Source: Halioglobus sp. (lineage in GTDB: Bacteria; Pseudomonadota; Gammaproteobacteria; Pseudomonadales; Halieaceae). From it: 64,000 nucleotides of DNA. Position 1 is the stretch's first letter; each line of letters opens with the position of its first letter. Below are positions 18,985-58,108 of this stretch, one piece after another. The stretch covers positions 678,181 to 742,180 of the forward strand of contig CBDDGB010000002.1 of NCBI GenBank assembly GCA_965227435.1. The letters are read 5' to 3'. The notes under the pieces are model-generated. The model did no database searches. It worked only from the letters and a program-made list of their open reading frames with translations, and was not told where the DNA came from. The position numbers were made by a program, and so were the translations under genes.

Positions 18985-18986
18985 GT

Positions 18987-19859: not shown

Positions 19860-19863
19860 CGCC

Positions 19864-21594: not shown

Positions 21595-21597
21595 AAC

Positions 21598-23793: not shown

Positions 23794-23803
23794 GGACAGG
23801 GGG

Positions 23804-25684: not shown

Positions 25685-25693
25685 GTGACTGCC

Positions 25694-28600: not shown

Positions 28601-29434
28601 TTTATCACGGACTCCGAGGAAGGCCTGATCCTGACCAACATGGACACGCTCATGGATGGCGAGCCGCGCAACAACTTCATGGAGCGCCAGCTGACCTGGA
28701 ACGAGGGCGGCATTCTCGACGGCGCGCGGCACATCATCCTTGGCGGCTACTACGCCTACATCGTCGCCGATGCTGGCCTGGTCGTGCTGAACCTCGAGGA
28801 CCCGCTCAACCCGATCCACGAGGCAACGGTGCCGCTGAACGATGGTCACTCGGTCGCACAGCAGTTCCGTTACCTGTTCGTGACCGATGCCGATGGCCTC
28901 AAGGTGATCGACATCACCCACCCACCGAAGCCGCAGCTCGTGGAAGGCAGCATGATTCCACTCGCCGAGGCCGGCAGGTTGCACCTTGCACGCACGTACG
29001 CTTACGTGGCGGCGGGTTCAGAGGGAATGGCTATCGTGGATATCACCAGGCCTGAGAGCATGAAGCTCTACCAGATGTTCAGCGATGGCCTTGTAGACAG
29101 TCAGGATGTTACTGTAGCCACGACCAACGCATCGCTGTTCGCCTACGTGGCAGATGGCCGCGGTGGCCTGAAAGTAATACAGCTGACCTCGCCCGAAAGC
29201 CAGCCCAAGTTCTACGGCTTCAGCCCGGAACCCAAGCCAGTGCTGATTGCGAGCTACCCGACCAAATCGCCGGCGCTGTCGCTGTCGCGAGCCCTTGAGC
29301 GGGACCGCGGTGTTGACGAGACCGGTGGCCAGGTCGCGGTATTCGGACGTGTGGGCTCGCGCCCGCTGAACCTGGAAGAGATGCAACGCCTCTTCCTCGA
29401 TGATCAAGGCAAACCATGGTATGTAGAAAACTAG
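25694..29434 (+). CDS. Exported decaheme c-type cytochrome with C-terminal LVIVD-repeat domain
   Basis: Signal peptide (..GPASA); 10 CxxCH motifs; repeats such as YLFVTDADGLKVIDITHP and YAYVAAGSEGMAIVDITRP; alternative GTG start 25685. Confidence 0.88.
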   Translation: MRISTIKLRSLSTIGRLAAVALVAGLAWAGPASAASKLVAVERDYITAPDAPPSQKAAAVTAKSEGCESCHTATDQKTMHANPAVKLGCTDCHGGNAEVFRPEGSSTLDDAPYLAAMESAHVLPRYPDAWHYPSSANPKRTYTLLNKESPEFVRFINPSDYRIAREACGACHLPIIQAAERSLMATSAMLWGGAAYNNGILPFKRYILGEAYNREGVGTSLQNPIEPTEEMIQASILPQIFPLPAWETIHPGDIFRVFERGGRNISNLFPETGLPNALGLLQRIEEPGRPDFRQSNRGPGTGARIAVPVINITKTRLNDPHTWFMGTNDQPGDFRHSGCASCHVVYANDRDPRHSAGYSQFGHTGRTQTADPTISKEEKGHPLKHEFTRAIPTSQCMSCHMHQPNMFINTYLGYTMWDYESDAPRMWPEEQFYPTDEERHNTLERNPEGAAPRGKWKDIEFVEQVSEMNDQMQDTQFADYHGHGWNFRAIFKRDRVGNLLDAEGNIVSDDDPEKFDKAVHMSSIHVDVGMHCVDCHFAQDNHGNGHIYGEVAAAVEIDCKDCHGSADAYPNLYTSGPAALEGGTNLGAIRNPDGRRRFEWIGDKLIQRSVLNPDLEWEMSLVKDTVTPGHASYNKKAARSKLMSDDTEKQNWGLSVANEDRAHSDDDIECYTCHTSWTTSCGGCHLPIEANNKTERHHYEGGETRNYATYNPQVARDQIFMIGRRETAKGGKIAPVRSTSALVLSSTNSNREKIYVQQPPIASSGYSSQAMNPHFPHTARKTETRVCDDCHLSKEKDNNAIMAQTLMYGTDFIDLLGYHAYVGGEEHITPVQVTEWQEPQAVIGSYLQRYAYPDYFGEHQANGKVLKHAYPHGSGRAACIQLRGEYLFVAEGDRGMQVYDAASVGNKGISQRVITAPFSPLGHDTRIESKNATCVALSTTQPVAPERNEGDLMRVTNQEQPFQAHYTYAFITDSEEGLILTNMDTLMDGEPRNNFMERQLTWNEGGILDGARHIILGGYYAYIVADAGLVVLNLEDPLNPIHEATVPLNDGHSVAQQFRYLFVTDADGLKVIDITHPPKPQLVEGSMIPLAEAGRLHLARTYAYVAAGSEGMAIVDITRPESMKLYQMFSDGLVDSQDVTVATTNASLFAYVADGRGGLKVIQLTSPESQPKFYGFSPEPKPVLIASYPTKSPALSLSRALERDRGVDETGGQVAVFGRVGSRPLNLEEMQRLFLDDQGKPWYVEN

Positions 29435-30720
29435 TCGCCGCCTGTTTTGCGCTAGTCGGCGCCCTTGTTCTGGCCGGTGCCGCCCAGGCGGCGCCGTTGC
29501 CTGACTCAGGGGCGAACGTGCACGAGGGCGTTGCGAGCTGTTCAAACAGCGTCTGCCACGGCAAGAAAGCACCCAGCACCGACTCACCAGTGCTGCTCAA
29601 CGAGTACACCACCTGGATAGATGAAGACCAGCACTCGCAGGCTTACGCCACGCTCCGGTCCGACCAGTCGGTGCGCATCGCTAAAAACATGGGCCTGCCG
29701 AACGCACACACGGCCGATGTCTGCCTCGATTGTCACGCCGACAACGTACCGAAAGAGAAACGCGGACGGCGCTTCCAGATCACCGAGGGTGTCGGGTGCG
29801 AGGCCTGCCACGGCGGTTCGGGTAAGTGGCTGGAGTCACACGCTGAGGAAGGCACATCGCACGCGGACAACCTGGCCAAGGGTATGTACCCCACCGAGGA
29901 GCCCGTAGAACGCGCCCGCCTCTGCCTCTCGTGCCACCTCGGCACCGAGCGCAAGTTTGCGACCCATGAAATCATGGGCGCCGGCCACCCGCGACTGGCC
30001 TTTGAGCTGGAGCTGTACACCGTCTTCCAGCCACGCCACTACGAAACCGACGCGGATTACCGCGCACGCAAACCGTTCATCCCATCGGTCAACATGTGGC
30101 TGGCGGGCCTCCTGGTATCGAGCGAACAGACGCTCGAACTACTCCAGGAGGACTGGTTCACCAAGCGCAGCCTCGTACCGGAACTATCATTCTTCCAGTG
30201 CCATGCGTGCCACCATCCGCTGGATGACCTGCGCTGGCAGCCCGAGGGTGGCGCAGCCGCGCTGCCACCCGGATCAGTACGACTGAACGATGCCTCATTA
30301 CTGGTACTGCAATCGGTGCTCAGCATCCTCGGCAACGACGCCGCGGCGCAGATTCAGCGCGGCATCCACGAGTTGCACCAGTCGACGCTAACTGACCGCA
30401 ACGCGGTCGTTGCCGCGGCAGCGAAGCTGGAGAAAATACTGCCGCCGCTCGAGAAGGCCATCGTAGACAGGGACTACAATGCTGACGATATGAAGCGTTT
30501 GCGCGAGGGCATCATCAAGGCTGCCGCCAACCAGCGCTATCGCCACTTTACAGCGGCAGAGCAGGCTTACATGGCGGTCGAAAATCTCTGCATCGAGCTG
30601 AATGACGACAAGCGACTGCAGGCGAATCTCGACGAGTGGTTTGAGATCGTCGAAAAAGAGAATGAGTTCAACCCGCAAAAGTTCGCTGCCTCCGCCAACC
30701 GTTTCCTGGGTGCTCTGTGA
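29416..30720 (+). CDS. Exported multiheme cytochrome c (c554/c552-like)
   Basis: Signal peptide; CSNSVCH (CX4CH), CLDCH, GVGCEACHG, CLSCH, CHACH. Confidence 0.85.
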   Translation: MVCRKLVAACFALVGALVLAGAAQAAPLPDSGANVHEGVASCSNSVCHGKKAPSTDSPVLLNEYTTWIDEDQHSQAYATLRSDQSVRIAKNMGLPNAHTADVCLDCHADNVPKEKRGRRFQITEGVGCEACHGGSGKWLESHAEEGTSHADNLAKGMYPTEEPVERARLCLSCHLGTERKFATHEIMGAGHPRLAFELELYTVFQPRHYETDADYRARKPFIPSVNMWLAGLLVSSEQTLELLQEDWFTKRSLVPELSFFQCHACHHPLDDLRWQPEGGAAALPPGSVRLNDASLLVLQSVLSILGNDAAAQIQRGIHELHQSTLTDRNAVVAAAAKLEKILPPLEKAIVDRDYNADDMKRLREGIIKAAANQRYRHFTAAEQAYMAVENLCIELNDDKRLQANLDEWFEIVEKENEFNPQKFAASANRFLGAL

Positions 30721-33914: not shown

Positions 33915-35408
33915 ATGAACGGAGTCGCTATGAAGTTGCCAATTGCAGGAGTTGTTACCACGGTTGCCCTCGCCTACGCAGGCCCACTGTCCGCGCAGGT
34001 AGACGATGACCTGAACGACCTGGGCCGCGCTGTACAGGCTGCAGCGAACGACACGCCCAACCAGGTCTCGGCGGGGAACTCGATCCAGAACACCTGCGCC
34101 GACCTTGCGAGTGAACGACCCAACGGCATTCCCATGAATGACGACCCGGAAGACAACCTCGCCCTGCGCTGTACGCAGATGGTCGTGACAGCCATCGACC
34201 TGAATACGCCAGGGCCGGGTCGCGGGGGCTTTAACATCGGCCTCAACAACGAGCAGCTGGCGGAAGCCATGCAGCAGCTGTCCGGTGAGGAACAAGTATC
34301 CAAGGGTCGACTGGCGACTGAGAGTTCCAATGGCCAGTTTGCCAACATCGGCATGCGCCTCGACGCAATCCGTGCCGGCGCTCGCGCAACCGCGGGCGGG
34401 CTGAGCGTTGCCATGAACGGCGTGCCGGTGTCGGGTGGCAACGCCGGTGACGAGGGCACGGGCTGGGGCTGGTTCCTGAACGGCGCGGTCGGGAACGGTG
34501 ATCGCGACGCCACCCAGGGCGAAGACGAGTACGAGTACGATTCCTTTGGCGCCACCCTGGGCTTCGACTACATGTACGACTCTGGCTTTGTGGCAGGTAT
34601 CGCTATTGGCTACAGTGACTATGAAGTCGACTTCGAAACCACCCAGTCCTTTGTGGCAGGCACGGATCTCACCAGCACGCAGTCAGGCGGCGGCTTCGAT
34701 ATCGACGGCTACGCCATCAGCCTCTATGGCATTGGCGATATCGGCCCGATATCGGTGGACGGCCTGATCAGCTATGGCCAGAGCGACTACGGCACCGAGC
34801 GCATCATCGATTACCGCAGCGCCCCTGGCGCGCAGGACACCATCATCGTAAATCGTTCGATGACGGGCAGCACAGACAGCGAATCACTCACCATCGGCCT
34901 CAACGCGAGCAAGGTGTTTGATCTCGGCGGAGTAGACCTCGCGCTCAGCGGTGGCTTCAGCTACCTCGACCTGACCGTCGACGGCTATACAGAGAAAGAC
35001 AGGGCGATCGGCATGGACACTGCCGCTGTCAGCGGCCTGGCCCTGCAGTACGACGACCAGGATGTTGACTCACTGCAGTCCGCCATCGGCGCGCAAGTGT
35101 CCAAAGTGTTCAGCACGGGCGCGGGCGTTGTACTGCCCTATGCAAAGGTCGAGTGGCGGCACGAGTTTGAGAACGACGCTGACGCACTGAAAACGCGCTA
35201 TGCGGCCTACGATACCGACACTCCGGCCGACAACAGCGACCTCATCGTGATCTCAGATGACCCTGACGAGGACTACTTCGAGGTAGGTATCGGCGTCTCC
35301 GCCGTATTTGCGCAAAACATCCAGGCGTTCATCGACTACACCACCACGGTTGACCTCGAGGACGTGGATGCCAACCTTTTGACTATCGGCATCAGGGGTT
35401 CGTTTTAA
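33915..35408 (+). CDS. Autotransporter beta-barrel protein with short passenger
   Basis: Signal peptide; WGWFLNG, GATLGFDY, LPYAKVEWRHEF, C-terminal IGIRGSF. Confidence 0.85.
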   Translation: MNGVAMKLPIAGVVTTVALAYAGPLSAQVDDDLNDLGRAVQAAANDTPNQVSAGNSIQNTCADLASERPNGIPMNDDPEDNLALRCTQMVVTAIDLNTPGPGRGGFNIGLNNEQLAEAMQQLSGEEQVSKGRLATESSNGQFANIGMRLDAIRAGARATAGGLSVAMNGVPVSGGNAGDEGTGWGWFLNGAVGNGDRDATQGEDEYEYDSFGATLGFDYMYDSGFVAGIAIGYSDYEVDFETTQSFVAGTDLTSTQSGGGFDIDGYAISLYGIGDIGPISVDGLISYGQSDYGTERIIDYRSAPGAQDTIIVNRSMTGSTDSESLTIGLNASKVFDLGGVDLALSGGFSYLDLTVDGYTEKDRAIGMDTAAVSGLALQYDDQDVDSLQSAIGAQVSKVFSTGAGVVLPYAKVEWRHEFENDADALKTRYAAYDTDTPADNSDLIVISDDPDEDYFEVGIGVSAVFAQNIQAFIDYTTTVDLEDVDANLLTIGIRGSF

Positions 35409-35426: not shown

Positions 35427-37004
35427 ATGAGTAGTGACCGTCCGCCCGGGAGTTCACCCCCGGGCGATTCTTCCAACAAGCAGGTCAATCCCGCAGACCT
35501 GGAACAGGAAACCGAGGTCCGCGACACGGCGGATGACCCCACCGCGCTGTCTGAAGACGAGACAGCGGCCAGCGCCCAATCCTCCTCTCCCGGCGGCGGA
35601 GACCCCGCGCCGGGTGACCTCGTGTCCGGGCGCTACCGACTCGAGAAAAAACTCGGCGAGGGCGGCATGGGTACCGTCTTCCTCGCACTCGATGAGGTAT
35701 ACGCAGGGGAGTTCGAAGACAAGAACGCCCATGTCGCGCTCAAGTTCTTAAACACCAAGTTCTCCCAGCACAAGATTTCGCGCATCGCGCTGCAACGTGA
35801 AACGCGCAAGTCGCAGCAGCTCGCCCACCCCAACGTGGTGCGTGTCATGCACTTCGACGTGTACGAAGACACGCCCTACATGATCATGGAGTTCATGCGC
35901 GGCCAGCCCATGGACGAGTACCTGGCTGAACGTCGCGGACAGGCAATGACCCTCGAGGAGGCCATGCCGCTGATCAAGGGCATGGCGAACGGGCTCAAGT
36001 ACATTCACGAAGAGGGCCTGGTGCATTCAGATTTCAAGCCGGGCAACGTGTTTGTCACCGAGTCGGGCGTGCCGAAGATCCTCGACCTCGGAATCGCGCG
36101 CATCAGTGAGTCGGTACAGGACGAGGATCACCAGACCAAGTTCGACGTGTCCGCCCTCGGCGCACTGACGCCGACGTACGCCAGCTGCGACATGTTTGAC
36201 GGCATGCCGCCCGACCCCAAGGACGACATCTACGCCCTCGCCCTGGTGATCTACGAGCTGCTGGCCGGGCATCATCCGTTCGAACGCACACCGGCCAACC
36301 GTGCCCGCGGTAACGGCATGCAGCCACCGCGTATCAAGTCGCTTAACCGCACCCGCTGGCGTGCGCTGGAGCAGGGCCTCGCCTTTGAGCGCGACAAGCG
36401 CATCGACAGCGCAGAGGCACTCTACAGCGCCCTGAAAGGCGACAAGCAGCGCCGCAAAATGGTGACGCGCGGTCTCGCCGGCGCCACGTTGCTGGCTATC
36501 CTGACGGCAGTAGCCATCGGCATCTTTGGCGTCAAACCAACAGACCCTGATGAGGCCTACAAAATCGAATTGATGGGCATCTCGCTGGATGCACCGCCGC
36601 CCGAGCCAGATGATATGGCGCGCATTGCACGCTGGCTGGACCAGGGCCAGGCTTATGTGAACATCGCGCGCGATATCTTCGACCAGGGTGACCTCGTCAC
36701 GGCGCACCACGTCCTGCAGGTCGGGGGCGACAATGCGCTTGAGGCCTTTATGTCGATCCTGAAACGCACCTCCCATGACGAAGCCGCGGCAGGCATGCTG
36801 GATATCGTAAACCTGTACGCGAGCTGGTCAGGGGCTAAACTGGAAGAAGGCGATGCTGCGGCCGCGCTGTGGACGGCTTGCCAGGGCCTTGCCCTGCACG
36901 GTGGCCACGAAGAGCTGAACAGCCTGTATGCGCGCGCCGCCAAGACACTGGGCCAGTCACAGCCGGACTGTGAGACCGTGATGCTCACAGAACCGGCAAC
37001 GTAG
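35427..37004 (+). CDS. Membrane-spanning Ser/Thr protein kinase (Hanks type, non-RD)
   Basis: LGEGGMG, VALK, HSDFKPGN, DLG, DIYALA; TM helix then C-terminal extracytoplasmic region. Confidence 0.92.
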   Translation: MSSDRPPGSSPPGDSSNKQVNPADLEQETEVRDTADDPTALSEDETAASAQSSSPGGGDPAPGDLVSGRYRLEKKLGEGGMGTVFLALDEVYAGEFEDKNAHVALKFLNTKFSQHKISRIALQRETRKSQQLAHPNVVRVMHFDVYEDTPYMIMEFMRGQPMDEYLAERRGQAMTLEEAMPLIKGMANGLKYIHEEGLVHSDFKPGNVFVTESGVPKILDLGIARISESVQDEDHQTKFDVSALGALTPTYASCDMFDGMPPDPKDDIYALALVIYELLAGHHPFERTPANRARGNGMQPPRIKSLNRTRWRALEQGLAFERDKRIDSAEALYSALKGDKQRRKMVTRGLAGATLLAILTAVAIGIFGVKPTDPDEAYKIELMGISLDAPPPEPDDMARIARWLDQGQAYVNIARDIFDQGDLVTAHHVLQVGGDNALEAFMSILKRTSHDEAAAGMLDIVNLYASWSGAKLEEGDAAAALWTACQGLALHGGHEELNSLYARAAKTLGQSQPDCETVMLTEPAT

Positions 37005-37045
37005 CTCGTGCTGCATTAAAGGGCCCAACCTAAGAGGACTTGACC

Positions 37046-39748
37046 ATGAAACGCCACATACCCCTCGTTGCCCTCGTGTTTATGGCGCTACCGACACTGG
37101 TGGCGTCCCAGCAGCAAGAGGCACTCAGCAAGGACTATGGCCTCGTGGACGCCAACAAGCCGGTGGTGTGCCTGCTGCCGGGGCGCGTGCGCAAACTCGG
37201 TTCCGTTATGACCTACCTGGAGCGCCGCAAGCCCGCGAAGATGACCGCATCAGAGTGCGAAATTCGCGGCGGTGAATACACACTGTACGATCGCGCGAAC
37301 TACGAGAACGCGCTGGCCGTGTGGATGAAAGCCGCCGAGGAAGGCGATGCCACCGCGCAGGTCTACGTGGGAGAAATCTACGAGAAGGGCTGGGTGGGTG
37401 AAGCCGACTTCGCCACCGCATCCACCTGGTATGCCAAGGCGGCGGAACAGGGTGATCGGCGTGCCCAGCGGCGCCTCGCCTATTTCTACGAAAACGGGCT
37501 GGGCGTCGGCGAGGACCGCGACAAGGCCCTCGGACTCTGGCGTACCGCACTTGGCCTGAAGGAGGATCTCGTACTGGCATCTGAGCTGGAAGCGGCCAAG
37601 TCAGAAGCGCAGCGCAAAATCGACTCGCTGGTGGCGCAACTCGAGGAACAGAACATCCAGACCGGTCGCCTGCAGCGCAATCTCGACGAAGTACGTGCCT
37701 CACTCGCAGAACAGTCCCGATCGCTGCAGACAGCGCAGTCAGAGGCGCGCAGGCTCGAACAACAGGTGGTGACGTCCCGCGCAGCGGGAGACAGCGCGCG
37801 GGTGCGGGAACTGGAGGCACAGCTGGCAGCCAGCGAGTCGCAGGTAGAGGAACAGGAAATCGCCATCGAACTACTTGAAGCTGATGTGGCCGCGCAACAG
37901 GCCCAGGTGAGCGCCAGCATGCGCCGCGCCGATGTCCGCGGCAAGCAGCTTGCCAAAGCGCAGGCTGACTTGCTCGCAGAGTCGAGCCGCGGTGCAGCAC
38001 TCCTCAGGCAGCTGAAGGAGAAAGACCAGGCGGTAGATGCGCTTGAACAGCAGGTCGCGGACGCACAAACACAGCTCGCGCAGTCCAAGAGTAGACAGCA
38101 ACAGCTCTCCAACCAGATCTCCACGGCACAGGGCGCAGGCAAGGCGCAACTGGAACAGGAACTCGCCCAGGCGCTCGCCGATGTCCAGAAGCGCGAGCAG
38201 CAGATGCAGACGCTAAAGAGCCAGGCCGCGCAGCAGCGCGCGGCGTTCGACGCCCAGCTCGCCGAATCCAAAATACGAGAAGCGGATCTCGGCACCGAGC
38301 TGGCAAAAAGCCAGCAGGAAAAAGCGCAGCTGGCGAAGCGCCTCTCCAGCACCAATGGCCGACTGGATGCACTGGAGAAAGAGCTTACCGATGCCCGATA
38401 CCAGCTAGTCGACCGGCAAGCGGCGGCCGAGGGCCTGCGTGACGAGCTTGCAGCACTCGGCAGCAATGACAGCGCCGCACGCGAGAGCCTGAATCTCAAA
38501 ATCGCCGAGCAGGAAAAAGCGATCGCCGCGCTTCAGAAAGAACGTGACGACCTGGTGGCCGGCTGGCAGGAAATGGAACAGGAGCGTGACACAGTCCGCT
38601 CAGAGCTATCAGACGAGGTAGACACCACGAGCTGGCTCAACGTGGAGCTGGAATCCGCGAGCAGCAAAATGGCAGGCCTGCGCGACGAACTGAAGGCCGC
38701 CCAGCTGGCACTTGCCGATGCCAACTTCGCTAAAACACAGTTGACGCAAGACCTGGCGCGGATGCAGGAGGACCTGGATCGCAGCGAGCAGCGCAGTGCG
38801 TCCGATCGACGTCTGATGGAACAACAGATGAGCAAACTGCGCGAGCAGCTGGCCGACGTGGACGCGGGCGTGGCTCAGGCTCGTACCGTGGCACTGCGTA
38901 CCGAGAGTGACTTCCAGCGCTTCGGGCAACGCCAACAGTCGCGTGCGCAGGCGCTGAGCGAGGCGCGCCCGCAGGTCGCTTCTATCACGAAGATTCCCAA
39001 GGGCGCACCCAAGGTTCGCTACCGTGCGGTGATCATCGCCAACTATGACTACGACTACCTGCCTGACCTTTCCTCGCCACCGAATGACGCTAACCAGTTG
39101 AAGAAGGTACTGGAACAGGCGTACAACTTCGACGTGAAGGTGCATATCAACCTCAGCCGCTCCGAGATGTACAAGGTGCTCGCCCAGGTCCGCAAGTTCG
39201 ACGAGAAAGATAGCGTGCTGCTGTACTACGTGGGCCACGGCAAGATGGACGAATTCGGTGACGGTTACTGGTTGCCTACCGACTACAGCGCCTCGCGGCC
39301 GCTCGCCGATGCGGTCTCGAGCGCCGACCTGACGCAGACGATGAGCCAGAGCAAGGCCAGACACCTCATGGTGATGGCCGACAGCTGCTATTCCGGCGCG
39401 CTGGCGCGCAATGGAGACCCCACGCTCGCCAAGAGCATCCCCGCCCTGCTCAACTACTGGATGGCAAACAAGTCGCGCACCGTGCTGACGTCTGGCGGCT
39501 TAAAGCCTGTACTGCGTGAGGGCCCAAACAACCACTCCATTTTTGCGAAGGCACTGATGGATGTGCTGCGCGACAACGGCGGCGCTATCAACGGCGAGAT
39601 GCTGCACGCGCAGCTCTACGACAGAGTGCGGGAATCGGCCGCACAGGCCGGCTTCCTCGACCAGAAACCGCAGTTTGCGGCGGTAGAGGACGCAGGGCAT
39701 GAAAACGGCCAGTTCGTGTTCCTGAAGCCGGATACGGTTAGGCTCTAG
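37046..39748 (+). CDS. Exported Sel1-repeat / long coiled-coil / caspase-like (peptidase C14) protein
   Basis: Signal peptide; Sel1 repeats; heptad-rich middle; YYVGHG and ADSCYSG dyad; alternative TTG start 37040. Confidence 0.85.
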   Translation: MKRHIPLVALVFMALPTLVASQQQEALSKDYGLVDANKPVVCLLPGRVRKLGSVMTYLERRKPAKMTASECEIRGGEYTLYDRANYENALAVWMKAAEEGDATAQVYVGEIYEKGWVGEADFATASTWYAKAAEQGDRRAQRRLAYFYENGLGVGEDRDKALGLWRTALGLKEDLVLASELEAAKSEAQRKIDSLVAQLEEQNIQTGRLQRNLDEVRASLAEQSRSLQTAQSEARRLEQQVVTSRAAGDSARVRELEAQLAASESQVEEQEIAIELLEADVAAQQAQVSASMRRADVRGKQLAKAQADLLAESSRGAALLRQLKEKDQAVDALEQQVADAQTQLAQSKSRQQQLSNQISTAQGAGKAQLEQELAQALADVQKREQQMQTLKSQAAQQRAAFDAQLAESKIREADLGTELAKSQQEKAQLAKRLSSTNGRLDALEKELTDARYQLVDRQAAAEGLRDELAALGSNDSAARESLNLKIAEQEKAIAALQKERDDLVAGWQEMEQERDTVRSELSDEVDTTSWLNVELESASSKMAGLRDELKAAQLALADANFAKTQLTQDLARMQEDLDRSEQRSASDRRLMEQQMSKLREQLADVDAGVAQARTVALRTESDFQRFGQRQQSRAQALSEARPQVASITKIPKGAPKVRYRAVIIANYDYDYLPDLSSPPNDANQLKKVLEQAYNFDVKVHINLSRSEMYKVLAQVRKFDEKDSVLLYYVGHGKMDEFGDGYWLPTDYSASRPLADAVSSADLTQTMSQSKARHLMVMADSCYSGALARNGDPTLAKSIPALLNYWMANKSRTVLTSGGLKPVLREGPNNHSIFAKALMDVLRDNGGAINGEMLHAQLYDRVRESAAQAGFLDQKPQFAAVEDAGHENGQFVFLKPDTVRL

Positions 39749-41239: not shown

Positions 41240-42886
41240 CTACAGCTCTGCAGCGCGCTGCTGGATTTCGTTGTTGAGGATGCGGTGGTTGTCACTGTAG
41301 TCCACGGGGCAGTCGATCACGTGCACGCCGGGCGTGGTATGGCAGTGCTCCAGCAGCGGGATCAAGCCATCGGCCGATTCAACGCGGTGGCCGTTGGCAC
41401 CGTAGGCCTCTGCGTACTTGATGAAGTCCGGGTTGCCGTAGTCGAGGGCGAAGTTGGGGAAACCGTAGCCCAGCTGCTTCCACTTGATCATGCCATAGGC
41501 ATCGTCCCTGAGGATCAGCACGACAAGGTTCATGTTGAGACGCACGCAGGTCTCCAGCTCCTGCGAGTTCATCATGAAGCCGCCATCGCCGCAGATCGCC
41601 ATGACGCGGCGGTCGGGATACACGAGGCGCGCCGCCATTGCTGAAGGCAGGCCGGCACCCATTGTGGCGAGCGCATTGTCCAGCAGCACTGTATTGGGCT
41701 CTTGCGCGGGGTAGTTGCGCGCAAACCAGATCTTATACACACCATTGTCGAGCGCGATGATGCCGTCGGAGCTCATCACCTGGCGAACGTCCTTGACGAG
41801 ACGCTGGGGATAGATCGGGCAACGGTCGTCCTCGGTGCCCTCAGCGATCTGGTCGATCAGCTTGTCGCGCACGTGCTCGAAGAAGCTGAAGTCCCAGTGT
41901 TCTTGCTTTTCCATGCCCTGGTTGATGCGCCACACCGCGTTGGCGATGTCACCCACTACCTCCAGCTGCGGGAAGTAAACAGGGTCCACCTCGGCGGTGT
42001 TGAAACTCATATGAATGACCTTTACATCGTGGTCGGTCATGAAGAACGGTGGCTTCTCGATCACATCGTGGCCAACGTTCACAATCACGTCCGCCGCGTT
42101 GATTGCACGGTGCACATAATCGTTTGCAGACAGTGCGCAGTTGCCAATGAACTCGGGACGCGTTTCGTCGACAACGCCCTTGCCCATCTGGGTGGTGCAG
42201 AAGGGAATGCCGAGCTTGTCGACCATCTCGGTGAGCATCTTGCTGGTGATCTTGCGATTGGCGCCCGCACCGATGACCAGCAGCGGGCTCTTTGCCTTGG
42301 AGAGCATGTCGATCGCGGCAGCAATGCTCTTGTCTTCCGCAATGGGACGTCGCACCGCGCTGGCCTTGAATGGCTGAAGGTCGACATCTTCTTCGCAGAT
42401 ATCCTCGGGAAACTCGAGGTGAGTTGCACCGGGGCGCTCCTCCTCGGCAAGACGAAACGCCTCACGCACCTTGTTCGGTACGTTGTCGCCACTCACGAGC
42501 TGGTGTGTGAACTTCGTGATCGGCCTCATCATTCCCACGACATCCAGGATCTGGAAAGCGCCCTGCTTGGACGTCTTCACCGGCTTCTGGCCCGTCACCA
42601 TCACCATGGGCATCGCGCCGAGCGTGGCGTATGCAGCGGCCGTAACAAAGTTGGTTGCACCAGGACCGAGGGTTGCCATGCAGACGCCCGCCTTCCCCGT
42701 CAGCCGGCCGTAGGTCGTGGCCATAAAGCCGGCGGCCTGTTCGTGGCGGGTGAGCACCAGTTTGACGTTGGAATTTCGCATGGACTCCAGCATGTCGAGG
42801 TTTTCCTCCCCCGGCACGCCGTAAATGAACTCGACCCCCTCCTCTTCGAGACATTTCACGAACAGGTCTGATGCTTTCATGGGCAA
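41240..42886 (-). CDS. Thiamine-diphosphate enzyme, acetolactate synthase large-subunit-like
   Basis: GVPGEEN, RHEQAA, GPGATN, GDGGFMM..N TPP motif; no small subunit adjacent. Confidence 0.9.
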   Translation of the reverse strand: MPMKASDLFVKCLEEEGVEFIYGVPGEENLDMLESMRNSNVKLVLTRHEQAAGFMATTYGRLTGKAGVCMATLGPGATNFVTAAAYATLGAMPMVMVTGQKPVKTSKQGAFQILDVVGMMRPITKFTHQLVSGDNVPNKVREAFRLAEEERPGATHLEFPEDICEEDVDLQPFKASAVRRPIAEDKSIAAAIDMLSKAKSPLLVIGAGANRKITSKMLTEMVDKLGIPFCTTQMGKGVVDETRPEFIGNCALSANDYVHRAINAADVIVNVGHDVIEKPPFFMTDHDVKVIHMSFNTAEVDPVYFPQLEVVGDIANAVWRINQGMEKQEHWDFSFFEHVRDKLIDQIAEGTEDDRCPIYPQRLVKDVRQVMSSDGIIALDNGVYKIWFARNYPAQEPNTVLLDNALATMGAGLPSAMAARLVYPDRRVMAICGDGGFMMNSQELETCVRLNMNLVVLILRDDAYGMIKWKQLGYGFPNFALDYGNPDFIKYAEAYGANGHRVESADGLIPLLEHCHTTPGVHVIDCPVDYSDNHRILNNEIQQRAAEL

Positions 42887-43118
42887 TATCCTTATATGGC
42901 TAGAGTTTTTTATTCGTGTTCCGACTGCGTAAGTCTAGACGCTATTTGGGCGTTGTGTGGCGTCTAGGCACATTTATTGTCTGCTAATGAGGCAATGCTG
43001 CCGAGCGGGTGAGAACCTCCCTCCAACCGTATGAAATTTAAGCAATTATGGCGGCCCGCCGGGCGCGGTGTTGTGACTGCTCGTTGCCATGCTTCCAGAC
43101 GGGTGGCAGGATAGTCAT

Positions 43119-44327
43119 ATGCCTGCGTTTGACTACAGCGCATCACTCTATCCCGTCCGCGATGACCTCCCAGCGGCGTACAAAAACTACTGGCAAAAAC
43201 TGGCCCAACCTGGCAACTGGTGGAGCGGCGCCGAGCGGGTCGCCATAGCGGAGGAAGTGCGCAATGCGACGCACTGCGAGTTCTGCAAGCGCCGCAAAGC
43301 TTCGCTCTCTCCCTACCAATTCCCCGGCGAGCACGACCACTCAGGTAAGCTACCTGAGGCGGCCGTCGACGCGGTGCACCGGATTATCACCGACCAGAAT
43401 CGCATTACCGGTAATTGGATCGAAGAGCTTGCAAAAGACGGCATCAGTGACGGCCACTTCGTGGAGCTGCTTGGCGTAACGGTCACGGTGTTCAGCATCG
43501 ACGAGTTTAATCGCGGCCTTGGCCTTCCGCTTGAGCCACTCCCAGAGCCAGTACCCGGCGAACCGGACGGTTACCGCCCCGCGAGCGCAGTGCACGACAC
43601 CGGTCACGTCGCCATGGTTCCCTCCAGGGGTCCTTTCAGCGCGCGTGAATCAGGCATGTGGCCACCGGGAAGAAGCGCTAACGTGTTGCGCGCGCTGAGC
43701 CTCGTGCCCGACGCCGTGCGAGACTGGTCAGCCGTCGCGGGCGCGCAATACCTTTCCCTGCCGCAGATGACGCAGTTCAGTGGCGACCTCGGCCGCAGCA
43801 TCGACCGCATGCAGATGGAGGTCGTTGCGGGTCGCGTGTCGTCACACAACGAGTGCTTTTACTGAACTAACTCACACGCGACCATGCTCAGTTTGAGCGC
43901 GGATATCTCGAAACAGGACGTTGATCTCGCCGTAATCAACGGTGAGGGTCACGGTGGCGTCCCCTTCGGTGCCGAACTAGCAGAGTTCGCCGGCGCACTC
44001 GCCAGCCGCGACGAGACCGCATTGGCAACTGCCAGGGATGCTCTCGCGGATGCGGCGGGGTCGGAGGTATTGGTCGATGCCGCTGCCGTTGCGGCCAACT
44101 TCCAGCGCATGGTGCGCATCGCGGACTCCACGGGCATTCCCGCTGACGACCTGGTTCAGGCCATCAGCGGTGATATCGCTGATCAACTGGATCTGAGGCG
44201 GTTTGAATCTGCCGGCAACACGCCGCCACAGTCCGCGTGGCAACGCATCAAGAACGTACCGTTGCGCCTGCTAGCAGGGCTCATTTTGCGCGCCGGCGAC
44301 CGCCGCGCACGCGCGTCTCGCCACTAG
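43119..44327 (+). CDS. AhpD-like alkylhydroperoxidase-related protein, probable selenoprotein (Sec at UGA 43863-43865)
   Basis: ECFY-TGA-TNSH continues in frame into ORF 43884-44327, giving CxxUxxxH; N-terminal CEFC; alternative reading is two ORFs (43119-43865, 43884-44327). Confidence 0.8.
43866..43902 (+). promoter_or_regulatory. Putative bacterial SECIS element
   Basis: Stem GCTCA/TGAGC extended by CC..T/G..GG; loop GTT starts with G, 25 nt after the UGA. Confidence 0.65.
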
Positions 44328-44341
44328 GCTGTCACCAGGGC

Positions 44342-45112
44342 TTACTCACCCTTTTCGCTGCGACCGCGCGCCATGACGTCCTCTCGCCGCTCAGCCAGCG
44401 TGGCGGCAAACGCATTGCGCGCTGATTCGATCGCCTTGGCTTCCTCCCACTTGAGCGCCTCGGCATAGGGCAGCGAGTACCCCTCATCGATCAGCGGCTT
44501 GTAGGCTGCAAGCACCTGGGGGACGCAAGCGCACATATCCTCTGCCATCTTGATTGCCCTCGGCAGGAGTTCATCAGCGGAAAGCACGTGGTTCACGAGC
44601 CCCCACTCGTAGGCCTGGCGGGCAAACACGGGGGCGCCCGTAAAGGAAATCTCCTTGGCACGCGACAGCCCGATAAGACGCGGCAGTTTTTGAGACAACC
44701 CCCAACCCGGCAAAATGCCAACACGCGCGTGAGTATCGGCGAAGCGTGCCTCCTCGGAAGCCACCAGAATGTCACAGGCCAGCGCCATCTCGAAACCGCC
44801 GGTCACCGCGTGGCCATTGATGGCGCCGATGATAGGGCCGGTGAAGGACTCCATAGCACGCGCTATGACATTGTCAGCCTCCTCCGCCGCCGTGCTGTCG
44901 GTAGACGACAGTTCCTTCAGGTCGAAGCCAGCGCAGAACGCGCGACCATTGCCCGTTAGAATCACTACCCGAATACTCTCGTCGCGCACGCATTCATCGA
45001 AGACGTCGACGAAGTCGGCGCGCAACTCACGCGACAGCGCGTTCATTTCGTCCGGGCGGTTGAGCGTGACGATGGCGAAGCCTTCGCGCTTGTCGAGCAG
45101 TACTTTATTCAT
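44342..45112 (-). CDS. Enoyl-CoA hydratase/isomerase family protein
   Basis: VTLNRPDEMNAL, AFCAGFDL, GGFEMALACD, FADTHARVGILPGWG. Confidence 0.93.
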   Translation of the reverse strand: MNKVLLDKREGFAIVTLNRPDEMNALSRELRADFVDVFDECVRDESIRVVILTGNGRAFCAGFDLKELSSTDSTAAEEADNVIARAMESFTGPIIGAINGHAVTGGFEMALACDILVASEEARFADTHARVGILPGWGLSQKLPRLIGLSRAKEISFTGAPVFARQAYEWGLVNHVLSADELLPRAIKMAEDMCACVPQVLAAYKPLIDEGYSLPYAEALKWEEAKAIESARNAFAATLAERREDVMARGRSEKGE

Positions 45113-49692: not shown

Positions 49693-51582
49693 ATGTCGCG
49701 ACGCAGAGCACTGACCCCGCTTTTCAGCCTTTCTTTCGCCACGCTTTTCCTGAGTACTCCGGCACTCGCCCAATACACCCCCTGGGAAAGCGAAGACTAC
49801 CCGCTCAATCTGTACTGGGGCGACACACACCTGCACACGTCCTACAGCGTCGACGCCAACGCGATGGGGAACGTGTCACTGCCCCCCGCCGACGCCTATC
49901 GCTTCGCACGCGGCGACGCGGTGCGAGCCACCACCGGTATGGTGGCAAAACTCAATCGCCCACTCGACTTCCTGGTGGTATCGGATCATGCGGAGCAGTT
50001 GGGCACCATGTTGAAGCTGCGCGAGGGTGACCCGAGAATCATCGACAAGCCGGCGGCACGCGAGGTTTACGAGGCACTGAAAAACAGCACGACCGGCGAC
50101 GAGTCCGCCATGGCCGTTATGCAGAACTTCCTGGCACAAATGGCCGCGGGCGAGGCGCTGCTGTCCAGTCCCGAGGTGTCGTCGGAGATCTGGCAGGATT
50201 CCATCAAGACCGCAGACGAATTTAACGACCCGGGTAACTTTACCGCGCTGATTGGATTCGAATGGACCTCGATGCCTGACTCCAACAACCTGCATCGCGT
50301 TGTCATCTACGCAGACGATGCAGACAAGGCGAGCACCATGCAGCCCGTATCGTCCAACGATGGCGAAGACCCCGACAGCCTGTGGGATTTTATGGAGGAA
50401 TACATGGCTTCGACGGGTGGGCGAATCCTGGCGATCCCCCATAACGGCAACCTCAGCAACGGCAAGATGTTCGCGACTACCGACTATTCAGGCAGCCCGA
50501 TAGACAAGGCCTACGCAGAGCGGCGCGCTCGACTTGAGCCAATCGTTGAAGTCACCCAGATCAAAGGTGATGGCGAGGCACACCCATTCCTCTCCCCGGA
50601 CGACGAATTCGCCGACTTCGAAACCTGGGACGGCGGCAATTTCGCCGCGATGGCCGAGGTGAACAAGACAGGCGAAATGCTCAGGCACGAGTATGCGCGC
50701 GGCGCACTGAAGCTGGGTCTGGAACTTGAGAAAAGCGTCGGAGTTAATCCCTACCAGTTCGGCATGATCGGCAGCACTGATTCGCACACGTCGTTGGCAA
50801 CGGGGGCTGAGGACAATTTCTGGGGCAAGGCCACGATCACCGAACCGGGCATGGAGCGCACTGTGCCGGGAAGTACCGGCATGCCGGGTGCAGACAGCCC
50901 GGGAACCCAGCTCACCAAGGGTTGGACGTTTACCGCGTCCGGGTACACGGGCGTCTGGGCGCGGGCCAATACCCGGGACGAGATATTCAACGCCATGCAG
51001 CGGCGCGAGGTTTACGCCACCACAGGGTCGCGCATAAGCCTGCGACTCTTCGGTGGCTACAACTACGCCGCCTCAGACGTACACGACCCCCATGCGGCGC
51101 GCATCGGTTACCGTGAGGGTGTACCCATGGGCGGCGAGTTACAGGCGGCAGGCGACGGCAAGGTGCCCGGCTTCATGCTGATGGCGCTGAAAGACCCGGA
51201 AGGTGCGAACCTGGATCGACTCCAGATCATCAAGGGTTGGCTGGACGCCGATGGTAACGTACAGGAGAAGGTGTATACGGTCGCCGCCTCGGATGAACGT
51301 CGCATTCGTCGCAACGGCAAAGTAAAGGCGCTGAAATCAACGGTTGACCTTGAGACGGCAAGCTACAGCAATACCGTAGGGGCCGTTGCGCTGAGCGCGT
51401 TCTGGGAAGACCCCGACTTCGACCCTGCAGAGCGCGCGTTTTACTACGCGCGCGTGATCGAGATCGAGACGCCCCGCTGGTCAGCTTACGATGCAGTTCG
51501 CCTCGGCAAGCCGCTCGATCCGGCAGACCCGAAAGTGGTCCAGGACAGGGCCTACAGTTCGCCGATCTGGTACAACCCCTAG
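49693..51582 (+). CDS. DUF3604 domain protein (putative metal-dependent hydrolase)
   Basis: YWGDTHLHTSYS, LDFLVVSDH, NNLHR, IPHNGN, GSTDSH, FYYARV, RAYSSPIWY. Confidence 0.9.
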   Translation: MSRRRALTPLFSLSFATLFLSTPALAQYTPWESEDYPLNLYWGDTHLHTSYSVDANAMGNVSLPPADAYRFARGDAVRATTGMVAKLNRPLDFLVVSDHAEQLGTMLKLREGDPRIIDKPAAREVYEALKNSTTGDESAMAVMQNFLAQMAAGEALLSSPEVSSEIWQDSIKTADEFNDPGNFTALIGFEWTSMPDSNNLHRVVIYADDADKASTMQPVSSNDGEDPDSLWDFMEEYMASTGGRILAIPHNGNLSNGKMFATTDYSGSPIDKAYAERRARLEPIVEVTQIKGDGEAHPFLSPDDEFADFETWDGGNFAAMAEVNKTGEMLRHEYARGALKLGLELEKSVGVNPYQFGMIGSTDSHTSLATGAEDNFWGKATITEPGMERTVPGSTGMPGADSPGTQLTKGWTFTASGYTGVWARANTRDEIFNAMQRREVYATTGSRISLRLFGGYNYAASDVHDPHAARIGYREGVPMGGELQAAGDGKVPGFMLMALKDPEGANLDRLQIIKGWLDADGNVQEKVYTVAASDERRIRRNGKVKALKSTVDLETASYSNTVGAVALSAFWEDPDFDPAERAFYYARVIEIETPRWSAYDAVRLGKPLDPADPKVVQDRAYSSPIWYNP

Positions 51583-54967: not shown

Positions 54968-56599
54968 CTACGAGAAATCGAGCCCGCTCAGGAGGTCTTT
55001 GATGCTGTGGTGAATGTCACGGGTGACGTTGAGCACCGAGGATGCCCCGGGTTCTGACACCGCCCTCGCGGCTGCGAGAGAGCGAAGCAACGCGTTCGCT
55101 TCCCTGTAATGTTCGTCGTTCGCCTGGATCAACGCCGTCACCACCTCATCGACCACCCCGGCAGATGCGCCCTCGCCCATCAGCTGCAGGTAGTCGCCAT
55201 ACACTTTCCTGGCGAACTTGCGATGGAACTTGTACAGCGCCTCCAATTCGCTGTCCCCTGCATGTCGCAGTGCGGCGATGTTCTCGCGGATATCCATCTG
55301 CGTCTTGCTGCTGTACACGAGCGCTCGGGCCTCGCGTACCTGCCGGTGCAGCTGTTCGGCTTCGGTCGCTGTAAGGGCCTGCTCCTGCAAACTCATCGAG
55401 AAGCGTAACAGGTCGGCCTCCCGATCTTTCAAGGCCGCGTAACGCTCAGTGACCCGCATGCGCTCGTCGTAGCGCTGCAGCAACGGGGAGGCAACACCCG
55501 CGGGCAAGGCGAGCGTCTCAGGGCGCAGGTGAAACTGGTGCAGGGCAAGTACAACGGTGTCCATGCGCATGACATGAAGCGCCGCGGCAGACGCTGCCAG
55601 CGCGGCTTCCGGCACCTGCGTGGTGTGGCCGGGCAACCGCCCCGCCTCGCCGACCGTACTGAACCGCCTCCCCAGCCAGTCGGCATAGGGCCGCAGGACC
55701 GGCAGGAAGACCAGGAGCCCCAACAGGTTGAACAGGCTGTGAAAGGCGACCAGGGAATACAGCGGGTCAGCAAGCCCCAGGACGCCGAGTAACTGCGGCA
55801 GGAACGGGAGTAGCAGCAGCAACGCCGCGACGTCCACCGCCACATTGAACAGGAAATGGCCCAGCGCAAGTTGCCGCTTGATCGCGTGTCCCGTCAGGCT
55901 TCCCAGCGCCGTGGTACTGGTGGTCCCAAGGTCAGCGCCGATCACAACGGCGGCGGCTGACGGCAGGTCGATCAGGCCACCATGGAGCGCCGCGAGTGTC
56001 AGCATCATCGTCGCCGAACTCGACTGGACGACCGCAGCAACCACCGCGCCGAGAAGGAAGAACACCCAGGGACCGAACTCCGTAAAGGCCGAGAGATCCC
56101 AGAGCTCGGGTAGCGCGGCTACCGCGTCCTTCATGATATCGAGCCCAAAGAGAATGAGGCCCAGGCCAAACACCGCGCAGCCCGTGCCGGACAACCAGCG
56201 TCGCCGCTCGGGCAACAGCTGCATCACCGCGCCAATAGCCATGGCTGGCAAAGCGAGTTGCGAGAGCGACAACTTGAAACCGATCGAAGCGACAACCCAG
56301 CCGGTGACCGTGGTGCCGAGATTGGCGCCCAGGATGACGCCTACTGCGTTGTAGAGGGGCAGCACGCCGGCGCTTGCAAACGCGAGCACCAGCAGGCTGA
56401 CCAGGGAACTGCTCTGAAGCAAGGCAGTGATCACAATGCCCAGCCCCGCGCTGCGTACCGGGGACGCCGTGGAGGTGGCTATCCAGCGCTTGAAGGTGTC
56501 GTATCCCAGCGCCCGCACTCCCGCCTCCAGCCGGTCCATACCGAACAGGAACAGCGCGAGGCCAATCACGATGAGAACGGGTGTGCCGAGGAACTCCAT
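54968..56599 (-). CDS. Na/Pi cotransporter family protein
   Basis: Repeated LLQSSS..GANLGTT and VQSSS..GADLGTT; start ATG 56599. Confidence 0.9.
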   Translation of the reverse strand: MEFLGTPVLIVIGLALFLFGMDRLEAGVRALGYDTFKRWIATSTASPVRSAGLGIVITALLQSSSLVSLLVLAFASAGVLPLYNAVGVILGANLGTTVTGWVVASIGFKLSLSQLALPAMAIGAVMQLLPERRRWLSGTGCAVFGLGLILFGLDIMKDAVAALPELWDLSAFTEFGPWVFFLLGAVVAAVVQSSSATMMLTLAALHGGLIDLPSAAAVVIGADLGTTSTTALGSLTGHAIKRQLALGHFLFNVAVDVAALLLLLPFLPQLLGVLGLADPLYSLVAFHSLFNLLGLLVFLPVLRPYADWLGRRFSTVGEAGRLPGHTTQVPEAALAASAAALHVMRMDTVVLALHQFHLRPETLALPAGVASPLLQRYDERMRVTERYAALKDREADLLRFSMSLQEQALTATEAEQLHRQVREARALVYSSKTQMDIRENIAALRHAGDSELEALYKFHRKFARKVYGDYLQLMGEGASAGVVDEVVTALIQANDEHYREANALLRSLAAARAVSEPGASSVLNVTRDIHHSIKDLLSGLDFS

Positions 56600-56707
56600 A
56601 ATCGCTACGATACAGGCGGACCTCACCCCTGGGCTTGCGGCAAATCAATTCGATCAGCGCTCTCGGGGCTAGACTGGCAGCTGCAAGAGGCACGGAACGG
56701 AGAATCT

Positions 56708-58108
56708 ATGGCCACCATCATCTTTCACGGCGCGGCCCAGGAGGTCACAGGCTCCTGCTACGAGCTCGAATCGCCCGCCACAGGAAGGGTCCTGCTGGAC
56801 TGCGGTATGCACCAGGGCGGTGACGCTGTCGATCGCATACGGGAGGAGCGATTCGACTTCGGCCCTACCGCGATCGATTCGGTGATCCTGTCGCACGCGC
56901 ACCTGGATCACAGCGGCCTCCTGCCGAAGCTGTTCAAGGAAGGTTTTCGCGGAGACGTCATCTGCACGCAGGCTAGTGCCGAGCTGCTGGACGTGATGCT
57001 GAACGACTCCGTGGGGCTCTACCTCAGGGACCTGGAACGGACCAACCTGCGCAATGCCCGCCGCGGCAAGCCGCTGCTCGAACCGGACTACAACAAGCAG
57101 GACGTAGAGGGCGTACTGGCGCTGTGCAGGGGCTGTGCCTACGGCGAATCGGTCACGCTGGGCCCAGGCGGGACGCTCACGTTTCACGATGCGGGCCATA
57201 TTCTCGGTTCCGCCATCATTGAGCTGTCGTTCAGCGAAAAAGGCGAAGACAAGACGCTGGTCTTTTCGGGCGACCTCGGTAAACGCGACTCGGTACTGAT
57301 GAACGAACCTGCGCGTCCCGGAAAAGCCGATGTGCTGCTCGTCGAAAGCACCTATGGCGACAGGGAACATCGCGATGAAATCGACTCGATGGCGCAGCTG
57401 CGAGACATACTGCGCGAGACCTGGCGTCGCGGGGGCAACGTCTTGATCCCGGCATTCGCGGTGGGTCGCACACAGGACATCCTGTTTCACCTAGGTTGCC
57501 TGTACCACCAGGGTGAACTGGACCCCTGGGAGGTCTTTCTCGACAGCCCGATGGCGATCGCCATCACCCAGATCTACGACCGCTGGCTCGACACAATGAA
57601 CGGTGATGTACGGGATCTCAGCGAGGCGCATCGCCAGTCGCTCGCCAGCTTTCTTCCCCGCCTGAACCTGGCGCTGGAGACCGAGGCGTCGATGGCGATC
57701 AACCGCATCAGGAGCGGCGCCATCATTATCGCGGGATCGGGCATGTGCACCGGCGGCCGTATCCGACATCACCTCAAGCAGCGCATCTGGGATGACCGCA
57801 ACACCGTGATTTTCACGGGCTACCAGGCGCGGGGAACACTCGGCCGCATTCTTGTCGACGGTGCACAGCGCATCAAACTGTTCGGCGAGGACTATGTGGT
57901 AAAGTCCTCCATTGAAACCTTGGGTGGACTCTCGGCGCACGCGGGCCAGACCGGCCTGGTGAACTGGATTAACTCTTTCCAGCCCCCGCCCAAGACATAC
58001 CTGGTGCACGGGGAGCCGCGGGCGCAGGACGCGCTCGCGCAACGTCTCTGGAGCGAACTGGGTATGAAGACCATCGTACCCGCCACCGGGCAGAGTGCGG
58101 TGTTCTAA
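56708..58108 (+). CDS. MBL-fold beta-CASP nuclease family protein
   Basis: VTGSC, DCG, SHAHLDHSG, GHILGS, FSGDLG, ESTYG, SAHAG, LVHGE; start ATG 56708. Confidence 0.92.
   Translation: MATIIFHGAAQEVTGSCYELESPATGRVLLDCGMHQGGDAVDRIREERFDFGPTAIDSVILSHAHLDHSGLLPKLFKEGFRGDVICTQASAELLDVMLNDSVGLYLRDLERTNLRNARRGKPLLEPDYNKQDVEGVLALCRGCAYGESVTLGPGGTLTFHDAGHILGSAIIELSFSEKGEDKTLVFSGDLGKRDSVLMNEPARPGKADVLLVESTYGDREHRDEIDSMAQLRDILRETWRRGGNVLIPAFAVGRTQDILFHLGCLYHQGELDPWEVFLDSPMAIAITQIYDRWLDTMNGDVRDLSEAHRQSLASFLPRLNLALETEASMAINRIRSGAIIIAGSGMCTGGRIRHHLKQRIWDDRNTVIFTGYQARGTLGRILVDGAQRIKLFGEDYVVKSSIETLGGLSAHAGQTGLVNWINSFQPPPKTYLVHGEPRAQDALAQRLWSELGMKTIVPATGQSAVF

Follow-up and report, generated by a model that had tools for sequence, protein, structure and literature searches.

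Does the TGA at 43863-43865 in a 64-kb stretch of Halioglobus sp. DNA (contig CBDDGB010000002.1; the whole 64,000-nucleotide stretch is called the window here) end one gene shortly before another begins, or is it a selenocysteine (Sec) codon inside a single longer gene? The list of open reading frames (ORFs) for the window has two entries at this locus, 43089-43865 and 43884-44327, both on the + strand and in the same frame. A preliminary description of the locus proposed that an AhpD-like selenoprotein had been split by the ORF caller into two genes. Our analysis supports that proposal through a family match, conservation of the UGA, constraint on the downstream part, and a Sec insertion sequence (SECIS). 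We conclude, with a probability of about 0.93, that 43119-44327 is one gene, encoding an AhpD-related selenoprotein of 402 residues (family NF041238), and that the UGA in it is decoded as Sec. The family is a known one, predicted in 2005 and present in current reviews and databases, and the result is an annotation correction, not a discovery. Its value is in the annotation itself: standard ORF callers cut the gene at the Sec codon, and the correct product would be one 402-residue selenoprotein instead of two hypothetical proteins.

A single reading frame across the UGA

The sequence from 43851 to 43886 reads GAG TGC TTT TAC TGA ACT AAC TCA CAC GCG ACC ATG, with the TGA at 43863-43865, exactly the string and position reported earlier. 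Translation through the TGA gives ...SSHNECFY*TNSHATMLSLS..., and the next stop comes only at 44325-44327. The complete coding sequence (43119-44327, + strand) thus counts 248 codons from the ATG at 43119, the UGA, and 153 further codons, for a total of 402 including Sec249, and ends in TAG. Its extent is indicated by the translation, by the match to NF041238 and by the starts of homologues. That the frame runs on from the TGA into the ORF at 43884, and that the fused product has 402 amino acids, had been claimed before and was verified by this translation.

Two ATG codons could serve as the start. The ATG at 43119 appears the favoured one, because a Shine-Dalgarno-like AGGA (43108-43111, + strand; read from the sequence) lies 7 nt upstream of it and because it agrees with the N-termini of homologues. 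The ATG at 43089, with which the first of the two listed ORFs begins, was rejected as a start, being unsupported by either homologue N-termini or the position of a Shine-Dalgarno sequence.

The conventional explanation of the locus is two separate genes, with termination at the UGA (ending at 43865) and an independent 147-aa protein starting from the ATG at 43884. Most gene callers do output the two pieces separately, and this ATG is invariant, being present in 30 of 30 orthologues. However, there is no purine-rich Shine-Dalgarno sequence upstream of it (CTCACACGCGACC-ATG), in keeping with the earlier remark that the ORF at 43884 lacks an obvious ribosome binding site. In addition, the six codons from the UGA to the ATG are conserved in frame, including the codon for the invariant catalytic His253, and homologues that carry Cys in place of Sec (Cys forms) are continuous proteins. 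We return to the invariance of the ATG when we describe the hairpin in which it lies.

Membership in the NF041238 family

The 402-aa protein, with the TGA replaced by Cys for the scan against NCBIfam, matches NF041238 (AhpD_rel_CFYUT, an equivalog model) with a score of 450.3 bits, where the curated cut-off is 175. A single stretch across the UGA aligns the whole model (positions 1-357 of 357) with residues 13-364, which speaks against two genes. The preliminary description had mentioned a family model named after a CFYUT motif; the model exists, and the fused protein is a full-length member of its family. The motif that defines the family is C-F-Y-U-T, with Sec or Cys at the fourth position, and the window gene has NECFY-TGA-TNSH. 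At the same place the orthologues have [EQ]C[FV]Y-TGA-T and the Cys forms have CFYC.

The family has been described from several directions. A 2005 paper on the Sargasso Sea selenoproteome presented "hypothetical protein 1" as a new selenoprotein family with a conserved CXXU and no functional evidence (PMC1088965), and a 2026 review lists NF041238 among the CxxU selenoprotein families. The window protein shares with the NF041238 "alkylhydroperoxidase-related (seleno)protein" the C-F-Y-U-T motif, the two-domain length, a single Sec and a source among marine gammaproteobacteria. It differs from the model, as do its Halioglobus-type relatives, in an extra basic tail of about 38 residues; nothing essential differs. 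The "AhpD-like protein" selenoproteins (TIGR01926/COG2128), a family that ranks among the most abundant of its kind in ocean metagenomes (PMC2398784), resemble the window protein in CxxU, in the placement of Sec at the second Cys, in the AhpD/carboxymuconolactone decarboxylase (CMD)-type helical fold and in their marine distribution. However, they are a separate family, and the window protein is about twice as long by virtue of an added N-terminal domain.

Conservation of the UGA and of the frame beyond it

Database proteins related to the window gene stop at the UGA. A search of 5.8 billion proteins gave 819 matches, and the best 120 of these are 60-96% identical to the query, almost all 246-251 aa long, and cover 62% of it. 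All but one (119/120) end in ...[EQ]CFY, and gene callers have therefore cut these genes at the same codon.

The genomes behind such proteins tell what lies beyond the cut. A scan of one genome per species gave 34 orthologous loci (L001-L034), of which 33 (42-70% identity) reach the motif, and in 33/33 of those the codon following the motif is TGA. After the TGA the orthologues continue in frame with T-[NSGT]-[SA]-H-A-x-M-L and then 120-156 further codons. They come mostly from Halieaceae, Halioglobus, Haliea and other Pseudomonadales bins, with one from an alphaproteobacterium (42% identity). Locus L007 belongs to a cultured organism, Candidatus Litorirhabdus singularis IMCC14734.

Two sets of orthologues deserve separate mention. 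Three copies, in bins labelled Bacteroidia, Flavobacterium and Cryomorphaceae (L001, L012 and L025), are 56-70% identical to the window gene, which suggests mis-binned contigs; horizontal transfer is less likely. Two others contain one extra in-frame TGA each (L010:6439-6441 and L031:3084-3086), where the remaining orthologues have Gly (GGA) or Trp (TGG). The context of these extra TGAs is not Sec-like, and they probably reflect errors of sequencing or assembly, or else genuine pseudogenisation.

In an alignment of 30 orthologues that spans 248 codons before the UGA and 116 aligned codons after it, the two parts evolve alike. Upstream of the UGA the entropy at codon positions 1/2/3 is 0.83/0.62/1.56 bits, and downstream it is 0.87/0.65/1.55 bits; the orthologues share on average 59% of upstream and 58% of downstream amino acids with the window protein. 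Coding selection is equal on both sides of the UGA, and the two sides therefore belong to one protein.

More distant relatives show what replaces the UGA. A HMMER search of 1.8 billion cluster representatives (50%-identity clusters), with the N-terminal part as query, gave 1095 relatives. About 91 of the best 150 end in C-x-[YF]; judged by where they stop, these are Sec forms truncated at the TGA. About 21 of the same 150 are full-length (339-429 aa) and read C-[FYH]-Y-C-x-x-x-H, with Cys at the position of the UGA. Alignment with full-length homologues had been suggested as a check of the selenoprotein proposal, and the Cys that they carry at the TGA codon bears it out. The in-frame UGA (43863-43865, + strand) is read here as Sec249 on the strength of its presence in all the orthologous loci that reach it and of the Cys in these homologues.

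The same comparisons bear on whether the locus could be a nonsense pseudogene, in which the TGA arose by mutation of a Cys codon (TGC or TGT) and function was lost. Starting from TGC, one substitution would suffice, and no Sec machinery was seen in the 64-kb window. On the other side are the TGA in 33/33 loci, the truncated forms among the cluster representatives, purifying selection that is equal downstream and upstream of the TGA, and a conserved RNA hairpin after it. The comparative data effectively refute a pseudogene, and of the alternatives that we consider it is the one to which we give the least credence, which is next to none.

A conserved hairpin downstream of the UGA

A putative bacterial SECIS (bSECIS) hairpin lies at 43882-43902 (+ strand). 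Its sequence, CC-A-U-GCUCA[GUU]UGAGC-G-C-GG, pairs in a six-pair core (43885-43890 with 43894-43899; U·G, G-C, C-G, U-A, C-G and A-U) that closes the loop GUU (43891-43893). Below the core there is a 1x1 mismatch and then two outer C-G pairs (CC/GG), and 25 nt (43866-43890) separate the UGA from the loop. In the published bSECIS model, an upper stem of 4-16 bp carries an apical loop of 3-9 nt, the first two bases of the loop include a G that as a rule precedes G or U, the loop lies 16-37 nt from the UGA, and the minimum free energy is at most -7.5 kcal/mol (PMC13188914). With its GUU loop, its 6-bp core plus two outer pairs, its spacing of 25 nt and its folding energy of -9.4 kcal/mol, the window hairpin agrees with the model in 4 of 4 respects, and the hairpin with a G-initial loop 25 nt after the UGA is confirmed as it had been drawn. 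Like E. coli fdhF-type and consensus bSECIS elements, it lies within the coding region, a short distance 3' of the UGA, and has a small loop starting with G-U. In contrast to the fdhF-type element, its sequence is unrelated and there are two loop forms among orthologues.

We consider the comparison across orthologues, and not the energy of the hairpin, to be decisive. Codons 256-260, which encode the hairpin, have the lowest third-position entropy of 364 five-codon segments of the gene, 0.18 bits versus a gene mean of 1.56 bits. Leu257 is encoded by CTC in 30/30 orthologues, whereas Leu270 is encoded by five different codons. The third base of codon 258 is T throughout, and where this codon encodes Arg it is CGT in 16/16. 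Codon 259 specifies seven different amino acids (among them L, V, A, T, W and E), yet its third base is G in every case, and Ser260 is encoded only by AGY. Pairing of the core G-C-U-C / G-A-G-Y is kept in 32/32 sequences. The outer part of the stem varies. A lower-stem pair (alignment columns 21/39, both synonymous third positions) is C-G in 8 sequences, G-C in 7, U-A in 2 and unpaired in 15, and only in the clade with a 3-nt loop does the lower stem pair, with the compensatory change from C-G to G-C.

The orthologues fall into two forms of the apical loop. One is a 3-nt GUU or GUC closed by A-U, found in the M-L-S-L-S clade that includes the window gene, and the other is a 5-nt CGUGY, found in the M-L-R-[VA]-S clade. 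These two forms, and the exact coincidence of the hairpin with suppressed synonymous change, could be of use in refining the SECIS models of this family.

The hairpin also offers an account of the invariant ATG at 43884. Met256, which it encodes, is invariant in Sec forms (30/30 orthologues), whereas the Cys forms have M, L, F, I, V or H. This pattern seems better explained by constraint on the RNA than by a role as start codon, because the U and G of the ATG lie in the SECIS stem. We regard the existence of two separate genes as highly improbable, if slightly less so than a pseudogene.

Selenocysteine machinery and the weight of contrary evidence

Several observations weigh against a single gene for a selenoprotein of the NF041238 family. 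ARAGORN found no tRNA of any kind, including tRNA-Sec, in the 64-kb window, and no SelA, SelB or SelD was found there with E. coli proteins as tblastn queries or in NCBIfam scans of most of the larger genes. To our knowledge, no member of the family has been tested biochemically. There is no peroxiredoxin or AhpC among the window genes scanned, and tblastn with the neighbouring genes of the window revealed no conserved neighbourhood across the 34 loci. The protein also scores below threshold against generic models, with 40.4 versus a cut-off of 81.8 for TIGR01926 (peroxid_rel) and 14.6 versus 23 for PF02627 (CMD), and likewise 13.6 versus 27.8 for TIGR00778 (ahpD_dom). Such scores mark it as a distant relative of AhpD and CMD proteins, which is why it has a family model of its own. 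The hairpin has its own weak points. Its fold energy is no better than that of shuffled sequence (z = -0.33), and about half of the orthologues lack pairing in the lower stem. RNAalifold recovered only the 4-bp invariant core, with no covariation, because a core that does not vary cannot covary. Finally, Rfam scans found no SECIS or other RNA family, either at gathering thresholds over the window or, with a permissive E-value, between 43800 and 44000. Gene families tend to have bacterial SECIS elements of their own, which would make the lack of an Rfam match unsurprising.

The orthologous loci add a little to what the window has to say about the machinery. ARAGORN found no tRNA-Sec in any of the 34 loci, and tblastn with E. 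coli queries found neither SelB nor SelD in them; only selA was found, in L016 and L017. In these two Haliea bins selA adjoins the orthologue divergently, about 110 nt upstream (L016:4472-5890, - strand, and the same place in L017). The Haliea SelA is 51% identical to E. coli SelA and scores 573 bits against TIGR00474 (cut-off 268). This adjacency lends indirect support to Sec decoding of the UGA, and a functional or regulatory linkage between selA and the orthologue in Haliea is possible.

In a third alternative, the UGA is recoded to something other than Sec, either Cys inserted by a tRNA(Sec)-like tRNA or Trp or Cys inserted by near-cognate read-through, in a lineage that has lost selenium utilisation. 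Some bacteria are known to have variants of the Sec pathway in which UGA is read as Cys, and our view of the host's Sec machinery is the 64-kb window, which has none. However, the orthologues keep a SECIS-type hairpin in which both the G-U loop and the spacing are canonical, a bona fide selA adjoins the orthologue in Haliea genomes, and the family is curated as a selenoprotein family. General read-through or reassignment is also hard to reconcile with the use of TGA as the commonest ordinary stop in the window (24 of 55 predicted genes), from which we conclude that the genetic code is not reassigned. We consider recoding to another amino acid very unlikely, and yet the least unlikely of the three alternatives.

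The active site and the C-terminal domain

The residues around the UGA correspond to a known catalytic centre. The active-site segment (43818-43877, + strand) contains E234 (43818-43820), C246 (43854-43856), Y248, U249 and H253 (43875-43877). In an alignment with the Cys-form homologues, E234, N244, C246, Y248, C/U249 and H253 are invariant. Proton relays of this kind have been described in PA0269 of Pseudomonas aeruginosa (Glu36/Cys48/Tyr50/Cys51/His55) and in AhpD of Mycobacterium tuberculosis (Glu118/Cys130/His132/Cys133/His137) (PMC3141380). The spacing in the window protein, E-x11-C-x-Y-C-x3-H, is identical to that of both relays, which indicates that Sec replaces the second Cys of the redox pair. 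The earlier placement of the TGA at the second Cys in the CxxCxxxH motif of AhpD, with the His at the right distance, is thus upheld by the register of the relay and by the Cys homologues.

Structural comparisons lead to the same fold. The family profile matches only AhpD-like "peroxidase-related" structures (3c1l, 5e-16; 6k40, 1e-15; 2pfx, 1e-14), and the matches are confined to the C-terminal domain, at profile positions of about 184-352. We also used an AlphaFold model, not of the window protein itself but of a 402-aa Cys homologue (P0127) that is 41% identical to it. The model is all-helical (pLDDT 90, pTM 0.91), and Foldseek aligned it with 2prr, 6k40 and 3c1l at target-length TM-scores of about 0.65-0.73 (2prr, 0.73) and more weakly with Sestrin2. 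From the profile matches and this model, we take the C-terminal domain to have the AhpD fold. It shares with M. tuberculosis AhpD, PA0269, 3c1l, 6k40, 2pfx and 2prr both the fold and the five-residue relay E-x11-C-x-[Y/H]-C-x3-H. In contrast to the window protein, M. tuberculosis AhpD, PA0269, 3c1l and the like have Cys instead of Sec and are single-domain proteins of about 145-200 residues. M. tuberculosis AhpD has an AhpC partner and is recycled in a lipoamide-dependent manner, neither of which is evident for the window protein.

We postulate the following mechanism. During translation, the UGA at 43863-43865 would be decoded as Sec. SelB would bind the SECIS hairpin at 43882-43902, with its GUU loop 25 nt downstream of the UGA, and deliver Sec-tRNA(Sec), and the ribosome would then continue for 153 codons past the UGA. 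In the finished protein, Sec249 would take the place of the second Cys in the centre E234...C246-F-Y248-U249-T-N-S-H253. We infer from family resemblance that the most likely chemistry is a cycle in which a selenol/thiol state of the protein alternates with a Cys246-Sec249 selenosulfide. The protein would then serve as a peroxidase-type enzyme or a thiol-disulfide oxidoreductase in antioxidant defence, with peroxides or protein disulfides or sulfenates as candidate substrates.

The C-terminal domain is followed by a basic amphipathic tail (44214-44324, + strand; residues 366-402), which lies beyond the match to NF041238 that ends at residue 364. The tail (…WQRIKNVPLRLLAGLILRAGDRRARASRH) is confined to the Halioglobus-type subclade and some of the Cys forms. 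The P0127 model has a terminal helix at the equivalent place, and the tail may be a helix for membrane association or oligomerisation.

The N-terminal domain

The added N-terminal domain has a conserved site of its own. A second motif, CEFC, had been noticed near the N-terminus and was found at residues 53-56 (C53-E-F-C56; 43275-43286, + strand), with both Cys invariant in the Sec and Cys forms in our alignments. Within residues 1-180 (43119-43660), C53, C56, H72, H87, D92, R95, E116 and D128 are all invariant in both forms. The family profile gave no match between these 180 residues and a solved structure by sequence. When the two halves of the protein were compared with hhalign, E39...C53-x-x-C56 was aligned with E234...C246-x-x-U249 and the helices following each, at an E-value of 0.019 and a probability of only 2.4%. 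The N-terminal domain keeps an invariant E-x13-CxxC, and the relay His has been lost, with Lys at its place. Tentatively, we suggest that it is a diverged AhpD repeat, which seems probable from this alignment, and that its CxxC/His site might act as a second redox centre or bind a metal.

One speculation follows from a repeat of this kind. Sestrin2 consists of two AhpD-like halves, and tandem AhpD-like repeats in the window protein might form an intramolecular redox relay, in which the N-terminal site exchanges electrons with the C-x-x-Sec centre. We consider such a relay rather doubtful. If it did exist, the protein would be a self-contained selenoenzyme with a Sestrin-like architecture, and its substrate would not be a classical AhpC.

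Genomic context and other features of the window

The gene for the predicted selenoprotein stands alone. It is divergent from a gene for an acetolactate-synthase-like thiamine pyrophosphate enzyme (41240-42886, - strand) and convergent with a gene for an enoyl-CoA hydratase (44342-45112, - strand). A scan for promoters and terminators from 42800 to 44500 gave nothing above shuffled sequences. The window has a G+C content of 61%, and the closest relatives of the gene are in Halioglobus-type bacteria; the host looks like a Halieaceae-like marine gammaproteobacterium. With this gene, an abundant selenoprotein family of the sea gains a further member of Halieaceae type; the gene also implies that the host genome uses selenium.

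The window contains several other loci that caught our attention. A seven-gene cluster at 16486-30720 (+ strand) begins with a gene for an 832-aa fusion protein, in which a pyridine-nucleotide-disulfide oxidoreductase is joined to two cNMP-binding domains and a 4Fe-4S dicluster. The cluster also encodes multihaem cytochromes c (one of 585 aa, one of 1249 aa with LVIVD repeats, and one of 434 aa of the c554 type) and a protein with an HbpS-like domain, and no NCBIfam equivalog was found for the members scanned. Within it, at 25682-25687, a 626-aa ORF (23804-25684) ends in TGA and the 1249-aa ORF starts with GTG on the next base in the same frame (TTLTF*VTAMR). This junction looks like translational coupling and not recoding, because its context has no Cys.

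A gene for a Ser/Thr protein kinase (525 aa) at 35427-39748 (+ strand) is followed, in the same interval, by one for a protein of 902 aa that has a long SMC-like coiled coil and ends in a caspase-like domain; this domain, of the EACC1-associated type, scores 88 bits, below the cut-off of 140. The pair may be a signalling or defence module. At 56258-58108 (+ strand) there is a gene for a 616-aa metallo-beta-lactamase/beta-CASP ribonuclease that resembles aCPSF1 and the type VII CRISPR Cas14 model, the latter with 366 bits, below the cut-off of 800. The window also encodes an autotransporter beta-domain protein (497 aa; 33915-35408, + strand) and a DUF3604 protein (629 aa, 788 bits; 49693-51582, + strand).

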